A DNA stretch of 63,956 nt, counting the filler, from Circinaria calcarea (lineage: Eukaryota): NCBI GenBank assembly GCA_051942165.1. It is 4 parts of 4 records of this genome, joined end to end, with 100 filler letters (N's around TTAATTAATTAA, not from the genome) between each part and the next. Parts side by side here need not be neighbours in the genome. Positions count along the whole stretch, not along the records: positions 32,353 to 48,414 come from JAVECS010000336.1; 3 more parts are not named here. The stretch is one strand, 5' to 3'. Below the pieces are notes generated by a model, which saw only the letters and a list, made by a program, of their open reading frames with translations, searched no databases and had not been told where the DNA came from. The stretch's first letter is position 1. Every line of letters begins with the position of its first letter. Positions 16,086-48,514 of the stretch are shown one piece after another. The position numbers and the translations under genes are program-made.

Positions 16086-16185
16086 NNNNNNNNNNNNNNN
16101 NNNNNNNNNNNNNNNNNNNNNNNNNNNNNTTAATTAATTAANNNNNNNNNNNNNNNNNNNNNNNNNNNNNNNNNNNNNNNNNNNN
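16086..16185. other. Artificial contig spacer (N44-TTAATTAATTAA-N44)
   Basis: 100-nt N block with a central six-frame stop linker, identical at three places. Confidence 0.97.
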
Positions 16186-27119: not shown

Positions 27120-27439
27120 AGGAGGAAGAATGCAAATATAAGACATGAGCAAAACAAAATACTATTCCATACATATGTCTGCCCAAAACAGAGAGGGGGG
27201 GGGGTTTAAAAAGATGTATGATGGATCAGGAGATGGCGCATGCCGCGAACGGCATTGACCTCTGACCTGAATGGAATTAATTATGCTCGAAGCTGCGGTC
27301 TAGACATTCGAATCCCATCACCGCCTGGGGTGTCTCTTTCCGGCTGCGCGTTTTCCTACCATGCAAAGACATGCTTGGGAAACAGCTTGAGGACTAAGTG
27401 AATGTTTGGATATATATACACTGAAAAACCGTTCCCCCG

Positions 27440-27836
27440 ACGCCGAGATTTCCCCCGGCCAAATATTGTACTGGGAAACTGAATCGAGGTTTCCCACGCA
27501 GAATAATTTCCCCCGGAGCCTAAAAGTTTCCCACGCTAAAAGGTTGTACTGGGAAACTGAATTAAGGTTTCCTAGTACAAAAAGTTCCTCCGACGCTGAG
27601 GTTTCCCACGCCAAATTCTGTATTGGGAAACTGATTTAAGGTTTCCCAGTACAGAAAGTTTCTCCGGAACTAAGGTTTCCCACGCCAAAATTTTGTACTG
27701 GGAAACCGATTTAAGGTTTCCCACGTAGAAAGTTTCGCCGGCGCTAAGGTTTCCCACGCCAAATTTTGTACTGGGAAACTGATTTAAGGTTTCCCAGTAC
27801 AAAAAGTTTCTCCGGAACTAAGATTTCCTACGCCAA
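27440..27836. repeat. Tandem array of five ~75-bp units, each with a GTACTGGGAAAC-N9-GTTTCCCAGTAC-type inverted repeat
   Basis: GTA(C/T)TGGGAAAC starts at 27468, 27546, 27620, 27695 and 27768 (periods 78, 74, 75, 73). Confidence 0.93.
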
Positions 27837-30615: not shown

Positions 30616-31614
30616 TTACTTGGATTCTCCGGCCTTTTCCTTGCTTCCTCCGGTGACAGAGGCGAAGATTCCAAGTAGACTTTCGAGCTCCCCTGGTGGT
30701 GTCCTACCCATACCGCACTCAGTGGCTACTCCAAAAGGCTTAGAGTAAGTCTTCTGCGCCACCTCAATCCTCTTCTTTGTACCTTCTTCATCGTTGGCGT
30801 GAACCAGGCCGAGGAACAGCTGCGTGTCCTTCAGCGTCAGGTTTGCCATTGGCTTGAAGTAAGCTTCATCGATCCTATCTTTTGGCACCGGCATATGAAT
30901 GTAGGTAACATGGTGGATGGGACCGAGAGTCTGGACAACCGTATTTGCGATTTCGACCAAGAGTTCGGCGTCAGTAGGCTGTACAAAGTGCATATGGGCA
31001 AAGTCACCATAACAGAGATGAAAGCCCAACTGAACGTCAGCGTTGACTGCCTTAGTAATGCGGGTCAAACGCTCGAACAGGCCGGCCTTCACAGGTGAGA
31101 AGTATGCCTTGAAATATGGATCTTCCAACCGTCCTTGGTCGGACTCAAGTGCGGCAATCTCAGTCGGAAGGTCCAACTGAATTGACAAATCGGACGCAGG
31201 AATGCTGTCCTGGATGTGGCGAAGAGCTTGCAGCAGCCGTTCCTCATACAGCGGCTCGATGCTCGACCAGTACTCGGTCTCAATGAAGCCACGCACCACG
31301 CTGTAGGGACTTGGGAGTGCCACTTGAAAGCGCACCCCAGAAGGGATGGTCCCGGCGGTTCGAAGTTCGTAGAATGTTTTGTATGAAGCGAGTGCTCGAT
31401 CGTCATATCCTGTAGGCTTGATATCCGAGAGACTGTACTTGACCGTGGTGGTTGGAAGGGGCCGCCACCCCAACGTGGTTGCACAAGCTCTATGGGGAAC
31501 ACGGTGAAGGCTGGAGGGGAGAGCTCCAAGGAGTTTCGTGTAGACTTCTGATGCAGAACTGAGAGGAAGACTGCCGAGGAAAAGGACTTCTGTTGGCGGT
31601 GTTTGGGAGCTCAT
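30616..31614 (-). CDS. UROD/MetE-like (cobalamin-independent methionine synthase-like) protein, intronless, with a probable N-terminal internal deletion
   Basis: GSLPL, GYDDRALASY, VRFQVALPSP, LGFHLCYGD..H.HFVQP, IHMPVPKDR, FGVATECGMGRTP motifs. Confidence 0.75.
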   Translation of the reverse strand: MSSQTPPTEVLFLGSLPLSSASEVYTKLLGALPSSLHRVPHRACATTLGWRPLPTTTVKYSLSDIKPTGYDDRALASYKTFYELRTAGTIPSGVRFQVALPSPYSVVRGFIETEYWSSIEPLYEERLLQALRHIQDSIPASDLSIQLDLPTEIAALESDQGRLEDPYFKAYFSPVKAGLFERLTRITKAVNADVQLGFHLCYGDFAHMHFVQPTDAELLVEIANTVVQTLGPIHHVTYIHMPVPKDRIDEAYFKPMANLTLKDTQLFLGLVHANDEEGTKKRIEVAQKTYSKPFGVATECGMGRTPPGELESLLGIFASVTGGSKEKAGESK

Positions 31615-32252
31615 TCTGCTGATGTGCTAAAGGTAAAATCTGATCCTTATCTTGATGGGTGAAACAGGTGAGATGTTTATAGTCGAAGGGACTCTAGAGG
31701 AGAGTTGAGAATGCCGACTGGCTGTTTAGCATTAAATACGCAAGGCGTAAATTATAATGCTCTTGCACATATGTGCCAAAGGATTTCAGAGATAAGCTAT
31801 GAGAATAGGTACGAGCGGTGATCATACGATGAACTGTGCGGCGTGCCGTATTAACCTGTGACTCTCTAAAACCGATAATGTGCTCCAGACTGCTGTGCAG
31901 CCTCAGAATTCCCATTACGGGAAGGATCAGCCCACCCGTTATGATATTCTGCTTCGCATTTCCATAACAATTTTTTTACCGACCCTAAATAGTATGTCGG
32001 GGGGTATAGAAATAATTCGCCGATGTTATAAAGCTCAAGCTGTCGTGAGCTATCAAGTAAGAAGCGTTCAAATAGACGTGGCCGAGTTAGCAACTTCGGC
32101 CGATATGCACCCACGCGGTTGACAGAATTCTCGGCACACCAAAACTCCGCCCCACCTATATTCTACGCAACACCACATACATTTACTTAGTAGGTGTAGG
32201 AAATTCGTGATTTAATTTATGATTCCAAGAATAGGAGAGGTGACTCGACGTT

Positions 32253-32352
32253 NNNNNNNNNNNNNNNNNNNNNNNNNNNNNNNNNNNNNNNNNNNNTTAA
32301 TTAATTAANNNNNNNNNNNNNNNNNNNNNNNNNNNNNNNNNNNNNNNNNNNN
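32253..32352. other. Artificial contig spacer
   Basis: Same 100-nt N/TTAATTAATTAA linker. Confidence 0.97.
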
Positions 32353-39213: not shown

Positions 39214-39221
39214 TATATAAG
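39214..39221 (+). promoter_or_regulatory. Probable TATA box of Thr-repeat gene 1
   Basis: TATATAAG about 130 bp upstream of the ATG. Confidence 0.5.
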
Positions 39222-39346: not shown

Positions 39347-39962
39347 ATGCTCAAAATTTCGTCCGCTCTCGCCATTGCGGCTCTCCTCTTGCCGTAAGCA
39401 TCCACTCCCAACATACCTGCCAGTCTCAACTATAGCGAATAACCATCTTCTTAGTATCGCGATCGCCAACCCTATTACGAGTTCCTATGCGGTCTCCACC
39501 CCCACCAAAACCCAGCAACAGAGTCAATCTACTTGTCCACCCCAGAATACTGTAACATATACCATCACCAAAACCCAGCAACAGAGCCAGACCACATGCC
39601 CAACCACCAAGCAAACTGAGACCAAGACCGAGACTGAGACCAAGACACAGTCTTGCCCAACCACCAAGCAAACTGAGACCAAGACCGAGACCAAGACCAA
39701 GACCGAGACTGAGACCAAGACCAAGACTGAGACTGAGACCAAGACCCAGCCTTGCCCAACCAAGCAGACCGAGACCAAGACCGAGACCAAGACCAAGACT
39801 GAGACCGAGACCAAGACCCAGTCTTGCCCAACCACCAAGCAGACTGAGACCAAGACTAAGACGGAAACTGAGACCAAGACCCAGTCTTGCCCAACCACCA
39901 AGGAGACTGAGACCAAGACCAATACCAACACTAAGCAAACTCCGACTCCGACTTACCATTGA
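39347..39962 (+). CDS. Secreted (Thr-X)n repeat protein 1, ~184 aa (exons 39347-39393, 39455-39962)
   Basis: Signal peptide MLKISSALAIAALLLP|IAIANP; GTAAGC..TAG intron; CPTTKQ(TE/TK)nTQS repeats. Confidence 0.85.
39590..39920 (+). repeat. Coding repeat of 6-bp ACCAAG/ACTGAG/ACCGAG units punctuated by TGCCCAACCACCAAG
   Basis: Directly visible; encodes TK/TE dipeptides and CPTTK. Confidence 0.9.
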
Positions 39963-41240
39963 GATTACTAAGGAGACAGGGGGAGTGGGGGGTTTCCGGC
40001 TGGGTGCTGCGAAGGGAATTTGATATTGATGGGTGGTCTCTGAGTGAGAAAGTGGATACGGGGAATACATATCACATAGGGTGTGGAAGCCGAGTAGCTT
40101 AGCCATTCTTTTGTAGTCATGAGCAATAGCAATAGCAATATCAAAAGCAAAATCGTTGGCTTGGATCCCGGCCGTTTCTCTTTTCCAGCTGTACTTTAGA
40201 GAATGTCCCCCAACTCGAATTCAAGAAAGTATCCGATTGTCTTTACCACGCCGTGAGACTTGGCAATGATTCGGCCATGGACTCCCTCATCGTACTCGAG
40301 AAGGCGCGAAGAGAACAAGACTCGGCTTAGAATAGGTATTATGCCGTGCAGCCCTTGCCGCACCAATAGCCCTTAAGATTGCGCGTAAACAAAGATAAAA
40401 GTTCACTAGCAAATTACTAATGGTACGGAGTACGGCTATCCTAGCTACCCTAGCGCCTTGCGGCGAACCCCTTGTGGAGATCGCAAAGAAGGGGGGAAAT
40501 AAGAAAAGGAAACCTGGAAAAAAAACGCGGCTGTCATTTTCAGCACACCAGCTGTACCATCTGATTCCCAAGAAACGGGTTTCCTGGACTGAATCATTCT
40601 CAATCAGAGCTTTTGCCATAGTTGATGTCTCGAGTGCACCGGTGGTGCAAATTTTTGGGGGAGAAGCTACAGAGGCAAGCAGCAGGGAATATGAAAAAGG
40701 CCTTGAGCTTAGGCTATGGTAGTGATAGTGAATGCCGAACACAGTGACGTATGGTATTACCATATGGTAAGCTACTCGGATCCGGCTCGCGAAAACTTGA
40801 CTCCGTGATGGCGTTTCGCTTGTGGTACCGGTGCTCATCATCGGTCGGGTTGAGATAGTTCGTGGGAGAAAATGGCAGGTACTACGAGCAATCTTGACCA
40901 TTGGACTTTGCCTACGGCATGAGGTCGGGTAAGGCAGGTACAATCACTCAAATACGTCCTCCAAAGTGTTTCACGCTTGCCAGTATTTGTTTAGTGAATA
41001 GGAGAACGGACCTTTCCCCCCGCAAAGTACAGGATATGGCGAGTCCATTGGAGTTGGAGTGAGCAAAAGTGCGGAGAAGGGTTTTATGAAGAACACCCTG
41101 CCAGTACTAACTACCATCGCTATCTATATTCGGTAGGAAGCAAAGACGAACTGATACAGAAGTGCTCTTACCATAAACAATCGATACAGTAGAGAAAGGG
41201 CCGCTTGTCCCCTACTGATGCATATCACAAACTTCAAGAT

Positions 41241-42659
41241 TCATGGTAGCGTTTCCTGTTTCTCCACCGCAGGATATATTTGGTCCCCTGAGCTGACAGT
41301 GCTTGCACTGCATTCGCTGTCCATTCGCCAACTCAGAGGGCGTTCAGCGCCGAGACATATAGTGATCTCATCTTTATCAGGAATGCCGGATTCCAGGCAC
41401 GAATCGGCGTTGATGCCTGCCCGACGCATTGGTAGGTCATCGGGGTGGACTTTCTCGTTCCGCCGGGAGTCTCCAGGAGTGCTTCTGGAAGAGAAGTATC
41501 GTAGGAAGTGCTTCAGCGCGGGCGTACAGCCGCAGATCAAACCGATGTTGACTTCTAGAACAGTGTTTATCTTCAGCTCACTGCACCTTTGTCAGATTCG
41601 AAAAGCAAGCTTCTGGAGCGGTGCAGGAACTTGGTCACCTGCGGGAGACTACTTGTTCGGCAAGCTTCAAGTAATTGGCTGGGTAGAAAGCGCGGACGCC
41701 GCAGGTAAATCGTACGATTGCCACCACGAACGCTCTAGTCAAGATTAGTTAGGCTTGCGTCCAGTTGGCAGCTACGTCGTTGGGATAATACACACATAAT
41801 TCCGCTCATGAAAACCAGAGATACCCCGATCTTCTCCTTCCGTGTAAGCTTTAGACGCCATACCGACGGCAGAGGCAAGACGAAGATGAAGAAATCGGAA
41901 ATGACGTTCATCGAGGCGTATACCTTGGCAGACTTTTTAAGGTCGATGCAGTGACCGGGAGACCCGGGTGTCCAGTTTTTGGAGATGGGTGCGCATCCGA
42001 GGAATAGTATGAGGAAATTACTGAACAAATAAGCGAAGACGAAGAACATGACAGCCCAAGTGGCATATTTGAACTTCCGATCGATGTGGAAAAGTCGGAG
42101 ATAGAGTAGAAGGATGGCCATCTTGTACCCAAGCAAACTAATTAGATACGGGATCGCCGAGATATAGCACCACTAGCAAGGCGATTTTCAGTGTTCGTGC
42201 AAGGGTAACCCTTTCTCTGGGAATTACTTGCTTACCTTGGTATACTCCACGAAGACCTCTGGCGTAATAACCTGATTGGGCGAGCCCATACCATACCGCG
42301 TTGCTATGATGGGTCAGCAGGATGACCTGATGGAGGGGATTGGGTTTAGCTGACTTATACCGATGCAAACGCTATGAGCGATACAAAACGGCTGTGAACG
42401 AGGTTCTCAGCGGATTCCCAATGGATTCTCGGGGGAATCAGGAGCAGACCAATGTCATCGCGGCGATATCTGCGGGTTTTCAGCTGAATCTCCCCTGAGC
42501 GGTCTGATATAGGGTTTACTAACAATCATCCCAGGATAGCGAGCGACTAACAAAAGCCCTAGTCCAAATCCGAAGCGAGACGAATATGGTGGAGAGGACA
42601 GGGACCAAGATGCATGTAGTTAAGATACGCGGAACTTGGTTTGGGACTTTATGATTCAT
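41241..42659 (-). CDS. PTH11-like integral membrane protein (fungal rhodopsin-like domain), multi-exon
   Basis: FVSLRIWTR..LSWDD, KMAILLLYLRLF, NVISDFFIFVLPLPSVWRLKL..KEK, EVNIGLICGCTP motifs. Confidence 0.85.
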
Positions 42660-43930
42660 GTTTATTACTGATTATGTGAGCCGCCTCGTATACAGACTTA
42701 TCCTCGTTGCAGTACTCTGATATTAGTGACAACCGTGAAGCAAGCGTGAGACTGAAAGAAGGAATCAAAGATATCTCTGTCAACCTAGGCTTAGCAAAGA
42801 GCAAGGTCAAGGCAACCGTGAGAGGTATATCACAATGTAATATCGCTAGGCATGAGCAGTTGCGATCCAGGTCTGTTAAACAGGTCGAGGAGATGGGTAG
42901 TTTCCATTCACAAGGGTGGCTACTTGGAGATACATCTCATCTTATGACTGCTACTACTTCCCATGATGACAGAGCGAGAGTCCAGCTCACCGCTGACTGC
43001 GTTCTGCAGGAAATATACTGGCAGCACCAGATATGTGGGATGACAGTCTAGCGCGGAGATTCATGAATCAAAGTTATCTCCCAAAAGCAACCTGAAGATA
43101 ATTGGACGCAGATAAAGGAACGTGTCAACCTTTGCATCTTTTGCCTTGTTGGAGTTTAGATTGGAAGGATAAGCCCTAGTCCAAACCAGTCATACTCGAC
43201 TGGATCGAAGTGTATCTTTACGCAGGAGGAGGATTAATAAGCATCTTTTTACTCGATGCAACCCCGCAAGAATAAAACGCGAACCTCTTTCCATCCCCCA
43301 ACAATCTCTAATCATCGAGACCTTCTTAGCTGGACTTATCCTTATTGTCCGAGATCGGGAGAGACCCCATCATCGCACAGCAAGGTAGAGTGGTGAACCT
43401 GTTGTCAGAATCTCACGCGGCGTGCGATTGGAGTACAGCGATGCAGCTCAGCACAGGAGGAGCGTACAATTGGCATGAGAAGAGGCCAAAGGAGCGGGAA
43501 GGCAGAGGGATTATCGAGTAGTATATCCTACAAATACTCCGCATGAATGTGCTGGGTAGAAAGCTTGCAACTGAATATGGCAGAGCTCTCTGGTTGGTAT
43601 CAATGAGTCGCTATTGTGACGAGCAATATAAATACTGTACCTTAACTTCGAGAAGTGATGCAGTCATTTAGGTTAGCCGTCTCTACGGAGTAAAGTCCGA
43701 GCGCCCGGTTTCCCCACCAAAATACCCCGGTCGATACGGATTTCCCCGCGGATTGAGTCAGTTCCCGCTCCACCAATGTCGTCGCTGCCGCTACCCCGGG
43801 GCTGGCATCGATGGAGCTTTCCCACCGCGCCACGGAGACCCCTTACCTCCCCATATTTCTTGCCCTCCACTCCATCCAAAGCTTCAAGGCTCACTTGCGG
43901 GTTTGGGCAGCACGACCCGTTTCAATTATC

Positions 43931-46075
43931 ATGGCGCCTTCGTTGACCGAGAAGCCCGGTTCCAGCAATTCCAACACGACAAACGAGAAGAGCTTCGAAA
44001 AGTTCTACATTGAGCATGCCGACCCCAATTATACCCAGCTCGTAGACATTGATCCTGCTCTTGATAGAGCCGTTACCCAAACCCTCGGCAAGTACATCGT
44101 CCCATGGATGTTCGGCCTTTTGCTGCTCGTTTTCATCGACAGGAGGAATATAGGTAACGCAAAGATTGATGGCTTAGTGACGGATCTTGCGTCTGGGAGG
44201 CAACAAGCTCAAAATTGGAGTGTGCTTTGCCACATACGAGCCGAAACCGGGCGAATGCAGCAATGACGGCTAACTTGATAGCCGTTGACGGTGTTCTACA
44301 TACTCGACAATCCGGTGGACATTCCCAGTGACTGGGTTGTGAAGGTTTCTTTGCGACTAAGTGGCCCCGAAGGCAGGGTACTGACATTGGAGAGCATGTT
44401 GCTGCCGGTTACTATCTTCCTGCGCTCACTGCGGCCTGGGGGATCGTGGGGACACGTGAGGCCGCCCTTTTCACCCCAATGCATCAAGTTTTCATCTAGA
44501 GCTACCTGCATAGTTATGGGACCCACCAAAGGCTATGGGTAAGCTAACCACCAAGGAGGACCGAGCCATATCATCCTAACCTGTCCAGCGGTCTCGTTGT
44601 CCGCAGATTACTTCTGGGTCTATGTGAAGGTGGCCTTATGGGGGAATGATACTATACATCTCGTTGTGGGACGCCGAATACATATAACGGAAATTGACGC
44701 TAATGGGCCAGCAGGTTCTACAGACGGCATTAGATGCTGTTTCGAATGGGTCTTTTCTACTCTGCTGCACCATTGATCGGGCGCCTTACGTGGACCACTT
44801 GCTACAGGCCTAGCTGAGATACGACTTGGAGGATATAATTGCTGGCCATGGATTTCCATCGTTAAAGGAGTAGGTAGGTTCACGCTAACTGTAGTGTTTG
44901 TCGAGGCACCAAATTGTGACTGGTGTCATCTAGACTATTACTGTCCTTTTCGGGATCTTGACCGCTTTCTTCATACGGCATACACCCGGACAGGCAAAAT
45001 TCTTGACTGAGTAGGAGCGTACACGTGCCTCTCACCGCATGAAGCTCGACGGACACGGGACAACTGCTGCTTCTGATCTTGCTCAAGAGAGATATCTGTG
45101 GATTTGGGTACTGTGACACCATCATCGACGGCGGGCCTGGCCTGTGAAACGATAGGTGCGCATGGCTGTGTTAACACGGTCCTTCTCAGTATTACCTTTT
45201 TTTCTATCATTACTCCATTAGTAGTGTCCTTTCCAAATCTTAACGGTGACTAATTTGGCTTAGTATCTACTCCTGTTCGCCTTTTTACCAACCATTATTT
45301 CCTGTCTGGGTTATACTCGAGTCAGTGTTCAATAGTTTACGATATCACCCAATATGGCTGGGTTTTTGTCCTATCAGGAATCTATGCTTCAGACAGGTTC
45401 AAAGCACGTGGCCCAATCATAATAATTGGATGTTCCCCTGCTATAATTGGCCATGTGATACTACTCACCGCCGAGCATCCCTCCATTCGATACAGAGGGT
45501 ATGTTCACTGTGCCTCGGACCTATATCCCTTATTGACCAGTTTAGCAGGTTTTTCATCGCTGCGGGTAGGCTATCACTCTAAGTGAATCGAGCAATACCG
45601 ACTGGACAAGATCTCGCTAGGTGTTTTCCCTAGTTCTTCGGCGGCAATATGGTGGTGTGTAGTCTTTCACACCCGTCACGTCTTGATCACTGCTTACAAG
45701 TTATGAGGTTTGGATGCGACTTGGCACCGCATTATATGCGAGCCACGGGAATTGGCGTGCAGATTTGCATAGCCAATACCTCCGCTTTCATTGCCACCTT
45801 CACCTACATTCGGAGAGATGCGTGAGAGCTTTCGGACCTACTATAGATCAGATCTGCGGCTGACAGAGACCACCGGGCCTCGATTCGTGACTGGCCACTG
45901 CATTAACGTCGGCATGCTCGTATACGCGGTCATGCTGAGTTTTACGGCAATTATCTACGTCAAGTGGGAAAATGGTAAGCGCGCCAGAGGGGAAAGAAGC
46001 AGTCGTTACTCGAAAAAGACGAGGGATGACTTGGGTACAGGCATCCTCCTTTCAGGTATTTCATATAATCACTAG
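43931..46075 (+). pseudogene. MFS transporter pseudogene (DAL5/TNA1 anion:cation symporter family)
   Basis: YIVPWMFG...FIDRRNIGNAKIDGL, later fragments LLGLCEGG, SDRFKARGP, GPRFVTGHCIN, KWENGKRARGER; many stops and frameshifts. Confidence 0.8.
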
Positions 46076-46846
46076 CTCGTTGGCCGTTGGCTTCCTCTGC
46101 CGCCGCTTTTTGCTTGGTGCTATCTGACGTCAGCTTCGTCATCCGTCAACCCTTCATGAGAGCTGCCAGAATTGTTTGGCTTCCCCCAAAGAGGATTCCT
46201 ACATGGCCTAGACTACGATCCAACAGGTTAGGATGCGGGTTGTGCTGTCGTCGGGCTTTTGGGCGAGAAGCGAGACGCCAAGATGGGGTGCATATGCAAG
46301 GCCATCCCACGGTGGGGGTTCCCTCTCGCTAAATATCCCCTCGAGCCTTTGATCGGCAGCGACACATGCTGGGAGCGAGACGTACCCTCGGTCCTATCGG
46401 CATTTATTGTTAGAAGTGTTTACCATCACCTTATCGAAATGTCGCTTTTTCATTGCACTCTATCCACTGTTCTTCTTGCGAGGCATACTTTCCATCAGTG
46501 CTGTGTATTCTTATCAGTCGGCTCGTTACACAGCATTATCCCCAACATCAGCAGTAGCTGATCATGTACTCTAAATTCTTACACATCATTAGCGGCCAGC
46601 ATTAGAGACAAGAAGACTCTTCAATTCCGAAGCGCTCAATGTACTAACCCATTGAACGGTCAATAACTCATAGGTGGGACTTTACATCCATGGCCTCGGA
46701 GCTGACTGCATCTGCTCACCTTTAGGAGGTGTTTTCCGTAAGTGCTGTGAGATGATGCCTTACAACTTTGTCGGCCTTACATGATAAGTATGTTGTGAGA
46801 CTATCGACCATAGAAGACTTGTTGAGAGCCTCGATAAGAATTTGTC

Positions 46847-46853
46847 TATAAAG
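46847..46853 (+). promoter_or_regulatory. Probable TATA box of Thr-repeat gene 2
   Basis: TATAAAG-like sequence about 135 bp upstream of the ATG. Confidence 0.5.
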
Positions 46854-46981
46854 GCAGCGTCTCGACACATGGATTCTACAAACTCAGTCCTATCATCTCC
46901 GATCGAGCTCTTCTTCTTACAGGACTATCAGACTCTCTTTATAACACCCGTTCCCCCTTGCCATCCACAAGAGGCACAAGA

Positions 46982-48367
46982 ATGACGAAAATCTCGCTCA
47001 TCCCTGCCCTCGTGGCCATTCTCTTACCGTAAGACAGCCGAAACCTTGCCTTCGAGCAATGAATATCAAATCTAACCATCCCCTAGTATCTCCCTCGCCA
47101 ACCCCTTTGCTAAGCCGGGAGACCTTCACCAACCCTATACTTCATCTACATCTACAACTTGCGATCCGTACACCGTCTACCATACTCAAACTGTGCCAGT
47201 GTAAGTTCTATCTTGACATATTCTTGCTAACATGTCAGAAGCACTTTACTAACTTTGAGAAAAAGCACTGTTGGATATACCAAGACGAAAACCTACACCG
47301 TCACCCAAACCCAGACTTTCGCTCCTACCACGGTTTATTACACCAAAACTCAGACCAACACCATCACTGAACAAAAGTATCAAACTAAGACCGTCACTAA
47401 AGCGGAGACCCAAACCAAAATTCAGACGCAAACCGACACTGTCACCAAGACCGCCACCATCACCTCAAGTCCCACAGCCGTAACCAAATATCTTACGAAG
47501 ACCCAAACCGACACCGTCACCAAGATCGCCACCATCACCCCAAGCCCCACATCCATAACCATTTACTCTACCAAGACCCAAACCGATACCGTCACCAAGA
47601 AGCAAGACCAAACCCAAACCGTCACCACCACCAAGGAAGCAACTCAAACCAAAACTCAGACGCAAACCGACACTGTCACCAAGACCGCCATTATAACCAA
47701 AGCTCCCCCGCCCACAACTATCTTTACCACCAAAACCCAAACGGATATTGTCACCAAGACCGCCATTATAACCAAAGCCCCCCCGCCCACAACTATCTTT
47801 ACCACCAAAACCCAAACGGATACCATTACCAAAAACCAGAACCAAACCGTCACCGTCCCCGTTACCAAAGTACAAACTCAGACCCAGACCATCACCCAGA
47901 AGGACACCCAAACAGCTACCGTAACCAAGGCGCAGACCCAGACTCAAACTGCCACCGTCACCAAGGAACAAATCCAGACGAAGACTCTGACCCAAACCGA
48001 TTTCCAAACCAAGACTAAGACCCAGACGGACACCCAGACTCAGACGGAAACAAAGATAAAGACGAAAACGGAGACGCAAACCCAATGCCCTACTACCAAG
48101 ACCAAGGAGCCATACACGTACACGAGCCCCACAAGCTCTTCGAGTTCCACTTGGTACACCGTCAGCACGACGGAGGAGCCACATCCGAGTTATAGCTCGG
48201 CTTCCACTTCCACTTGGTACACCGTCAGCACGACGGAGGAGCCACACCCGAGTTATAGCTCGGCTTCCACTTCCACTTGGGGGGATGTAAGTACGAGTAC
48301 GAGTACGACTGAGACCTGGGGTCCGACTACGACTGCGAAGCCGACTACGTCTTACTGGGTAGGCTGA
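46982..48367 (+). CDS. Secreted (Thr-X)n repeat protein 2, ~420 aa (exons 46982-47028, 47087-47200, 47266-48367)
   Basis: Signal peptide MTKISLIPALVAILLP|ISLANP; spliced exons stay in frame; TKTQTDTVTK repeats; no hydrophobic GPI tail. Confidence 0.85.
48145..48279 (+). repeat. Two near-identical 60-bp coding tandem repeats (TWYTVSTTEEPHPSYSSASTS)
   Basis: TCCACTTGGTACACCGTCAGCACGACGGAGGAGCCACA occurs twice, 60 bp apart. Confidence 0.9.
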
Positions 48368-48414: not shown

Positions 48415-48514
48415 NNNNNNNNNNNNNNNNNNNNNNNNNNNNNNNNNNNNNNNNNNNNTTAATTAATTAANNNNNNNNNNNNNNNNNNNNNNNNNNNNNN
48501 NNNNNNNNNNNNNN
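48415..48514. other. Artificial contig spacer
   Basis: Same 100-nt N/TTAATTAATTAA linker. Confidence 0.97.

Follow-up and report, generated by a model that had tools for sequence, protein, structure and literature searches.

A threonine-alternating secreted protein and its diverged paralog: a candidate orphan family of wall or matrix glycoproteins in the lichen fungus Circinaria calcarea

The window analysed here, the whole stretch of Circinaria calcarea DNA at its full length of 63,956 nucleotides, filler included, carries at 39347-39962 what its sequence features confirm as a real two-exon gene, coding for a predicted secreted protein in which threonine occupies every second position over long runs. 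Together with a diverged paralog on the same contig, 7.6 kb downstream, it makes up, as far as sequence can tell, a real orphan family of two genes in a lichen fungus, ordinary in kind but striking as a variant. We see about an even chance that the product is a lineage-restricted, O-mannosylated, disulfide-linked and extended glycoprotein of the hyphal wall or of the thallus matrix. New here is the paralog, with the same TATA spacing, signal exon, intron site and CPTTK motif.

Results

Gene structure

The gene and its elements are as follows.

39214..39221, + strand: TATA-like box, 133 nt 5' of the ATG
39347..39962, + strand: gene of the Thr-alternating secreted protein, two exons, 61-nt intron, product of 184 aa
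39347..39393, + strand: coding exon 1, bearing the larger part of the signal peptide (residues 1-15, plus two bases of the Pro16 codon)
39394..39454, + strand: intron, GT..AG, 61 nt, phase 2, splitting the Pro codon, with a branch-like ATAAC 16 nt before its 3' end
39455..39962, + strand: coding exon 2 and stop (39960-39962), with inferred signal cleavage after base 39467 (Ala20)
39534..39893, + strand: six Cys-Pro junctions, Cys codons at 39534, 39597, 39654, 39753, 39825 and 39888
39615..39935, + strand: five (Thr-X)n runs, X mostly Lys or Glu, built of ACN-NAG hexamers with 24-nt and 63-nt higher-order repeats

The initial annotation had proposed a spliced signal peptide, and the intron bears this out: left unspliced, the ATG frame ends at a stop in the first intron codon. 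Exon 2 contains no splice-donor-like site that could lead to a further exon. In the 184-aa protein the Cys are residues 43, 64, 83, 116, 140 and 161. Alternative frames, which read as Arg-Pro, Leu-Gly, Val-Leu-Val-Ser and Ser-Trp repeats, were set aside; they have no start, no signal and no counterpart in the exon structure of the paralog.

The paralog

The best support for a real gene at 39347-39962, as judged on sequence, comes from the paralog, whose elements are given below.

46847..46854, + strand: TATA-like box of the paralog, 135 nt 5' of its ATG
46982..48367, + strand: paralogous gene, 420 aa, with exon 1 at 46982-47028, intron at 47029-47086 and exon 2 at 47087-47200
47201 to 47265 (or 47259), + strand: second intron of the paralog, followed by exon 3 up to the stop

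Both genes have a signal exon of equal length, intron 1 at the same codon position and an Ala-Asn-Pro junction; TATA, start, splice sites, signal peptide and frame are intact in both. Exon 1 and the donor are identical at 34 of 53 positions between the paralogs, the next best place in the window reaching 29/53, and the protein alignment scores 268 against a mean of 220, a value reached by one of 300 shuffles in which Thr was kept fixed. The mature chain of the paralog contains 35% Thr in strong alternation, with Gln, Lys, Val, Asp or Ile as X and just 3% Glu. It has two Cys, one of them in CPTTK, and no GPI tail; its body is made of 75-nt, 36-nt and 63-nt repeats and is followed by a tail rich in Trp, Tyr and Ser. 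Since the paralog keeps the Thr alternation but neither the Lys/Glu face nor most of the Cys, the Thr spacing is the family trait. A third copy was not found in the genome with protein, DNA or splice-junction patterns, among whose matches 5, 8 and 10 other loci were read (for one pattern, 100 matches listed of 231).

Host and genomic surroundings

The host is a lichen fungus of the Pertusariales (Megasporaceae), a crustose lichen of limestone. The Utp25 protein of the window groups with Xylographa and Lambiella (Ostropomycetidae) in a clade of good support, in a tree of 42 rows drawn from 41 of the 120 hits listed, and it is identical over 499 of 499 residues to a protein labelled Circinaria calcarea by its source.

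Convergent with the gene, a fungal rhodopsin-domain (PF20684) membrane protein gene lies at about 41200-42700 on the minus strand. Between the paralogs, at about 43900-46100 on the plus strand, pieces in several frames read like a major-facilitator transporter gene, which may be degenerate; the four pieces scanned gave no Pfam match. Elsewhere in the window, a tandem array at 27431-27836 (74-nt unit, 5.4 copies, 80% matches) is apparently non-coding, and a single open frame of 336 aa at 30619-31626 (minus strand) looks like an intronless enzyme gene; it has no Pfam or NCBIfam match, and its product presumably resembles methionine-synthase-like barrels. Stretches of N with a 12-base AT spacer occur at 16086-16185, 32253-32352 and 48415-48514, where several contigs are joined, so that gene order across them is unreliable; the stop of the paralog falls 48 bases short of the last one. 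Hexamer tracts of ACTGGC/ACTGAT, hundreds of bases long, are dispersed in the genome (loci L058-L061 and L063, on contigs C28, C39, C68, C188 and C21 of the assembly), with frame breaks in L058, and are probably satellite-like DNA.

Composition and repeats of the protein

The 184-aa product contains 64 Thr (35%), 25 Lys, 18 Gln, 18 Glu and 6 Cys. Its mature chain of 164 aa (18.3 kDa, pI 8.95, net charge +6) includes 73 Ser and Thr (45%), lacks Gly, Leu and Trp, and is very hydrophilic, with a GRAVY of -1.69 and a FoldIndex of -0.32. Hydrophobicity is limited to the first 20 residues: the Kyte-Doolittle maximum over 11 residues, 2.77, is found only at the N-terminus, and values stay at or below -0.22 past residue 25. 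A small-x-Ala followed by Asn-Pro is common to both paralogs at the predicted cleavage junction. On hydropathy, then, and on this junction kept in both paralogs, we take a signal peptide to be present and a GPI tail to be absent, the latter because the C-terminus is hydrophilic (11-residue values of -1.58 at most), as had been proposed. N-glycan sites and dibasic sites are likewise absent from the protein.

Further claims of the initial annotation concerned the repeats themselves. Pro follows all six Cys, and CPTTK, said to be the usual form, occurs at four of them, the others being CPPQN and CPTKQ; the spacing from Cys to Cys is 21, 19, 33, 24 and 21. Thr at every second position is firmly upheld, with 43 lag-2 Thr pairs against 24.4 expected, a number that none of 2000 shuffles reached. 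Counting runs of at least 5 residues, the alternating runs measure 11, 25, 17, 13 and 9 residues. They are thus real, but they cover 94 of the 164 mature residues, so that a protein made "almost entirely" of them is an overstatement. In the same way, X is Lys or Glu at 35 of the 43 alternate positions, but this does not extend to the first ~48 mature residues, which are rich in Ser, Thr and Gln. The claim that there is no globular domain agrees with the Pfam scan, which returned zero families at E<=0.1 and zero at E<=10, and NCBIfam gave nothing better than E>=0.21.

Between the linkers the DNA consists of 35 hexamer units of seven types, in which bases 1, 2 and 5 are invariant and bases 3, 4 and 6 variable. 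No base variant, of six in all, lies outside these last three positions (P about 0.016 if positions are equally likely). Although the units are copies, this invariance suggests that the repeats are under constraint as protein.

Predicted structure and charge order

Single-sequence AlphaFold2 places strands on the repeats of the 184-aa protein and a turn at CPTT, with a low mean pLDDT of 52. For the paralog the mean is 38, and the best predicted part (pLDDT blocks 46-73) has four strands of 16-17 residues, each with a Thr face. These low-confidence models suggest a meander, an open antiparallel sheet. Foldseek gave no match at E<=0.001, and the rows listed by VIA-align were all open antiparallel sheets of a generic kind (barrel walls, pore hairpins, phage coat sheets). 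Its best rows, obtained with these same low-confidence models, had Z 5.8, rmsd 5.4 and 108 aligned residues for the 184-aa protein, and Z 8.6, rmsd 4.3 and 80 aligned residues for the paralog; no ice-binding protein stood among the best 50 rows for either.

If the runs are beta-strands, they would show an all-Thr face and a Lys/Glu face, as first proposed; the models put strands there, and the charges are balanced in each strand, with Lys/Glu counts of 2/3, 6/6, 4/4 and 3/3 (P 0.015 for such a low imbalance). Like-charge triplets do not occur (P 0.012, pooled shuffles), and the longest strand has the charge order ++--++--. In the best antiparallel register, opposite and like pairs number 4/1, 10/0, 6/0 and 6/0 per strand, with a P of 0.017 for pooled shuffles; shuffling within strands gives 0.14, and the longest strand taken by itself 0.20. 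When neighbouring strands are set in hairpin register they make 13 opposite and 9 like pairs (P 0.28), and parallel in-register stacking gives 16 like against 6 opposite pairs. All these P values are too small because the strands are copies of each other, and a duplicated 24-nt unit would by itself yield the charge pattern.

Homologue searches

Beyond the genome of C. calcarea, no real homologue was found in sequence or metagenome searches. A word-based search returned two matches among the 8000 best-sharing candidates, both compositional, and for the paralog 0/8000. With phmmer against 1.84 billion representatives, 10 matches were obtained at E<=0.001 and none at 1e-10, all of them repeat or linker stretches in unrelated proteins; among these weak database matches are (Thr-Glu/Asp/Lys)n linkers between the domains of dockerin-, NHL- and DUF58-bearing proteins. 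In metagenome contigs, 395 pattern matches gave 0 confirmed cases, and a DNA pattern found 14 loci, 12 of them with the peptide motif in frame, with no repeat-built homologue. ESM Atlas gave no usable match for the 184-aa protein; with a segment of the paralog the best match, an unnamed one, reached 0.88 and the next, a 'Zonadhesin', 0.78, both to be taken as leads only. Among PDB sequences there were two chance matches for the 184-aa protein and none for the paralog. Such negative results are weak because the gene is of low complexity and bears introns, and the family is poorly sampled.

In unrelated metagenome proteins (L043:2216-3424 and L045:3-1025), Thr/Gln-alternating strands end in Cys-Pro. 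These units are repeated inside Cys-rich regions of extracellular appearance, without Pfam match, and an independent use of the strand-plus-Cys-Pro unit is possible there. In the literature searched, we found no paper joining Circinaria with ice nucleation and no report of a secreted Thr-repeat fungal ice protein.

Discussion

A wall or matrix glycoprotein

We infer the glycosylation, disulfides, location and function of the protein from its sequence. In the explanation we favour, the protein would enter the ER, where many of its Thr would be O-mannosylated. The Thr-alternating runs would stay extended, as beta-strand or in a polyproline-like form, one side bearing sugars and the other a net-neutral set of Lys and Glu. 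Because there is no GPI anchor, we propose that retention outside the cell would be ensured by disulfides of the six Cys-Pro junctions, to the protein itself or to other wall proteins. The cross-linked product, very hydrophilic, would then act as a water-binding spacer or glue by which hyphae are cemented together. The alternation of Lys and Glu may have originated by slippage of a 6-nt unit and have been kept since the chain thereby stays extended, soluble and neutral.

Several properties of fungal surface proteins fit with this proposal. Fungal adhesins and wall proteins commonly have a signal peptide, tandem repeats, a high content of Ser/Thr and Cys within the repeats, none of these traits being universal (PMC6023273). 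A GPI addition signal is present in 18 of the 24 members of the adhesin set treated in that source, GPI-less flocculins with Ser/Thr repeats are known, and Cys motifs of the repeats make inter-chain disulfides in Aga1-Aga2 (PMC6023273). In yeast, O-mannose sites favour Thr, regions with 20-50% Ser/Thr, and hydrophilic disordered as well as beta-strand-prone stretches, Ala and Val being preferred neighbours and Asp and Leu disfavoured (PMC4824858). A sequence of this kind would by default be expected to become heavily O-mannosylated in a fungal ER (PMC4824858). Also in favour of the wall reading, an ordinary-looking GPI-type wall gene of the same genome (L056) contains a short TxTxT run. On the other hand, the strict alternation and the charge balance per strand (pooled P about 0.015) represent an excess of order that speaks against a plain mucin.

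Alternative explanations

This order could also serve assembly. We consider it unlikely that the protein is a natural ionic self-complementary beta-sheet former, in which antiparallel runs would set Lys facing Glu with Cys-Pro-Thr-Thr as the hairpin turn. Its sheets, a Thr version of EAK16-II, would extend to form tapes, fibrils or a gel locked by disulfides, perhaps when the thallus dries or salt rises. The charge balance, the lack of like-charge triplets and the favourable antiparallel register of every strand are consistent with it, as are the order of the longest strand, called 'modulus II' in designed peptides (PMC6812166), and the turn and Thr-faced strands of the models. Yet those models are of low confidence, complementarity fades within strands and between hairpin neighbours, bilayers of the designed peptides depend on a face of Ala or Leu (PMC6812166), Thr being much less hydrophobic, and mannose on Thr would probably hinder packing. 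Improbable in our view is an ice nucleator or recrystallisation inhibitor of new architecture, presenting an assembled flat Thr lattice with its Lys/Glu faces zipped. TxTxTxT and longer arrays form the ice-binding sites of the R. inquisitor and inchworm antifreeze proteins (PMC13080227). Lichens have proteinaceous nucleators active above -5 C, whose genes are presented as largely unknown, and InaZ orthologs account for the Mortierellaceae only, not for Fusarium (PMC12978214), where the nucleators are small aggregating subunits (PMC10655213). The host being a lichen fungus, from a group with nucleators of unknown gene (PMC12978214, PMC13342294), the ice idea is worth testing. However, the TxT ice proteins described in PMC13080227 are solenoids with a small, Cys or hydrophobic core, while Lys and Glu hold most alternate positions here; parallel in-register stacking would pair like charges; and O-mannose would, as we infer from PMC4824858, cover the Thr face. 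Because (Thr-X)n also occurs as a plain linker in multidomain proteins and in the ordinary wall gene, the motif alone is no pointer to ice. More improbable still is that protein and paralog would be spared heavy glycosylation and would join through their Lys/Glu faces into antiparallel sheets or fibrils with no core, held by Cys-Pro disulfides and exposing an unbroken Thr lattice. This would be at once a natural material of the ionic self-complementary type and the first ice nucleator of lichens traced to a native ascomycete gene, unrelated to InaZ and to the solenoid antifreeze proteins.

Other roles have been weighed as well. In one of them the protein would be disordered and protect against desiccation in the manner of a hydrophilin or LEA protein, vitrifying or gelling in the wall space, after secretion, on drying. 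The hydropathy, the FoldIndex and the near-neutral polyampholyte character of the chain would suit this role, and lichens dry repeatedly (PMC13342294); still, the mature chain has no Gly, Pfam gives no LEA family match and six spaced Cys imply a covalent structure, so that we hold this for very improbable. As little credit can be given to a gene copy that is silent or under weak constraint, its body being a hexamer microsatellite that has expanded and serves no special function. The small number of hexamer types, the failure to find a homologue and similar, non-coding-looking ACCAAG and ACTGGC hexamer tracts elsewhere in the genome would agree with such a copy, but the signals of expression, splicing and secretion and the frame are intact in both paralogs, and the hexamer variants are confined to three positions, unlike the frame-breaking L058 tracts. 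C. calcarea deposits calcium oxalate and grows on limestone, and the regular spacing of Glu on one face could evoke a template or modifier of calcium oxalate or carbonate at the rock-lichen interface; given the positive net charge, with a Lys for each Glu, and the near lack of Glu in the paralog, we lend this last role hardly any credence.

Thallus-matrix proteins are largely unidentified, and so, according to PMC12978214, are the genes of lichen ice nucleation. The 18-kDa protein, cheap to express, offers a direct test case for both questions. Should it prove to be no more than a mucin-like protein of the wall, it would be an ordinary case, though an extreme one. Self-assembly would make it the natural counterpart to the designed EAK-type hydrogels, with Thr replacing Ala, and ice nucleation in addition would make it a new ice-active architecture. 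Judged on sequence, the chance of a self-assembling or ice-active protein is small.

Comparison with known systems

The initial annotation had likened the protein to insect antifreeze proteins and to InaZ, an analogy that breaks down on defining features of these proteins. Like the TxT antifreeze proteins of T. molitor, spruce budworm, R. inquisitor, inchworm and Clubiona (PMC13080227), it would be secreted, contains Cys and displays long TxTxTxT arrays, visible in its runs and lag-2 excess. In those proteins, however, the coils have cores of Cys, Ala/Ser, Ile, Val or Leu/Gln, turns of Gly/Ser and fixed lengths of 10-24 (PMC13080227), whereas here Lys and Glu would point inward, there is no Gly and the Cys are irregularly spaced by 19-33; because of these unit lengths and of the Lys/Glu on the other face, it is not a TxT solenoid ice protein. 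With the InaZ-type nucleators of bacteria and Mortierellaceae, the fungal ones being membrane-free and equipped with cysteines, it shares TxT motifs (PMC12978214). These nucleators are built of 23-42 repeats of 16 residues with TxT, SLT and YGS (PMC12978214), while our protein has about six units in 164 residues and matches no Pfam family; SLT and YGS are impossible in it because the mature chain is devoid of Leu and Gly. By its sequence, the protein is not a member of either the solenoid antifreeze or the InaZ families.

The designed EAK16-II and zuotin-derived peptides (PMC6812166) have in common with it a strict alternation of uncharged and charged residues with balanced charge and, in part, the ++--++-- order. 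Their hydrophobic face is made of Ala or Leu (PMC6812166), not of Thr, and the strands described here are parts of a predicted secreted protein, where Cys-Pro joins them. Borrelia OspA has a central sheet rich in Thr, Lys and Glu. As a single-layer beta-sheet, this central sheet has two water-exposed faces and needs no hydrophobic core, as would be the case here (PMC9523718), but it is capped by globular domains, and we obtained no sequence or structural match to it. Hydrophilins are very hydrophilic and Gly-rich, and our protein has only the first of these two traits.

Closest in kind are the fungal surface proteins. As in a typical ascomycete adhesin or wall mannoprotein, hydropathy and composition point to a signal peptide and Ser/Thr-rich tandem repeats, but the GPI signal, the WCPL and CX4C Cys motifs (there is no Trp, and the Cys lie far apart) and the dibasic and N-glycan sites of typical adhesins are all missing. 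Aga1, Fig2 and Hwp1, with their Cys-motif repeats, and the GPI-less Map4 of S. pombe (PMC6023273) resemble it by a signal peptide, Thr-rich repeats, repeat Cys capable of disulfides and the lack of a catalytic domain. The 184-aa protein is much smaller, without lectin or Ig domain and without hydrophobic or aromatic residues in its repeats, its strict alternation of Thr and charged residues sets it apart, and no sequence homology to them was detected. Standing outside every named family tested, it would, in the simplest reading of these likenesses, work like a wall or matrix mannoprotein.
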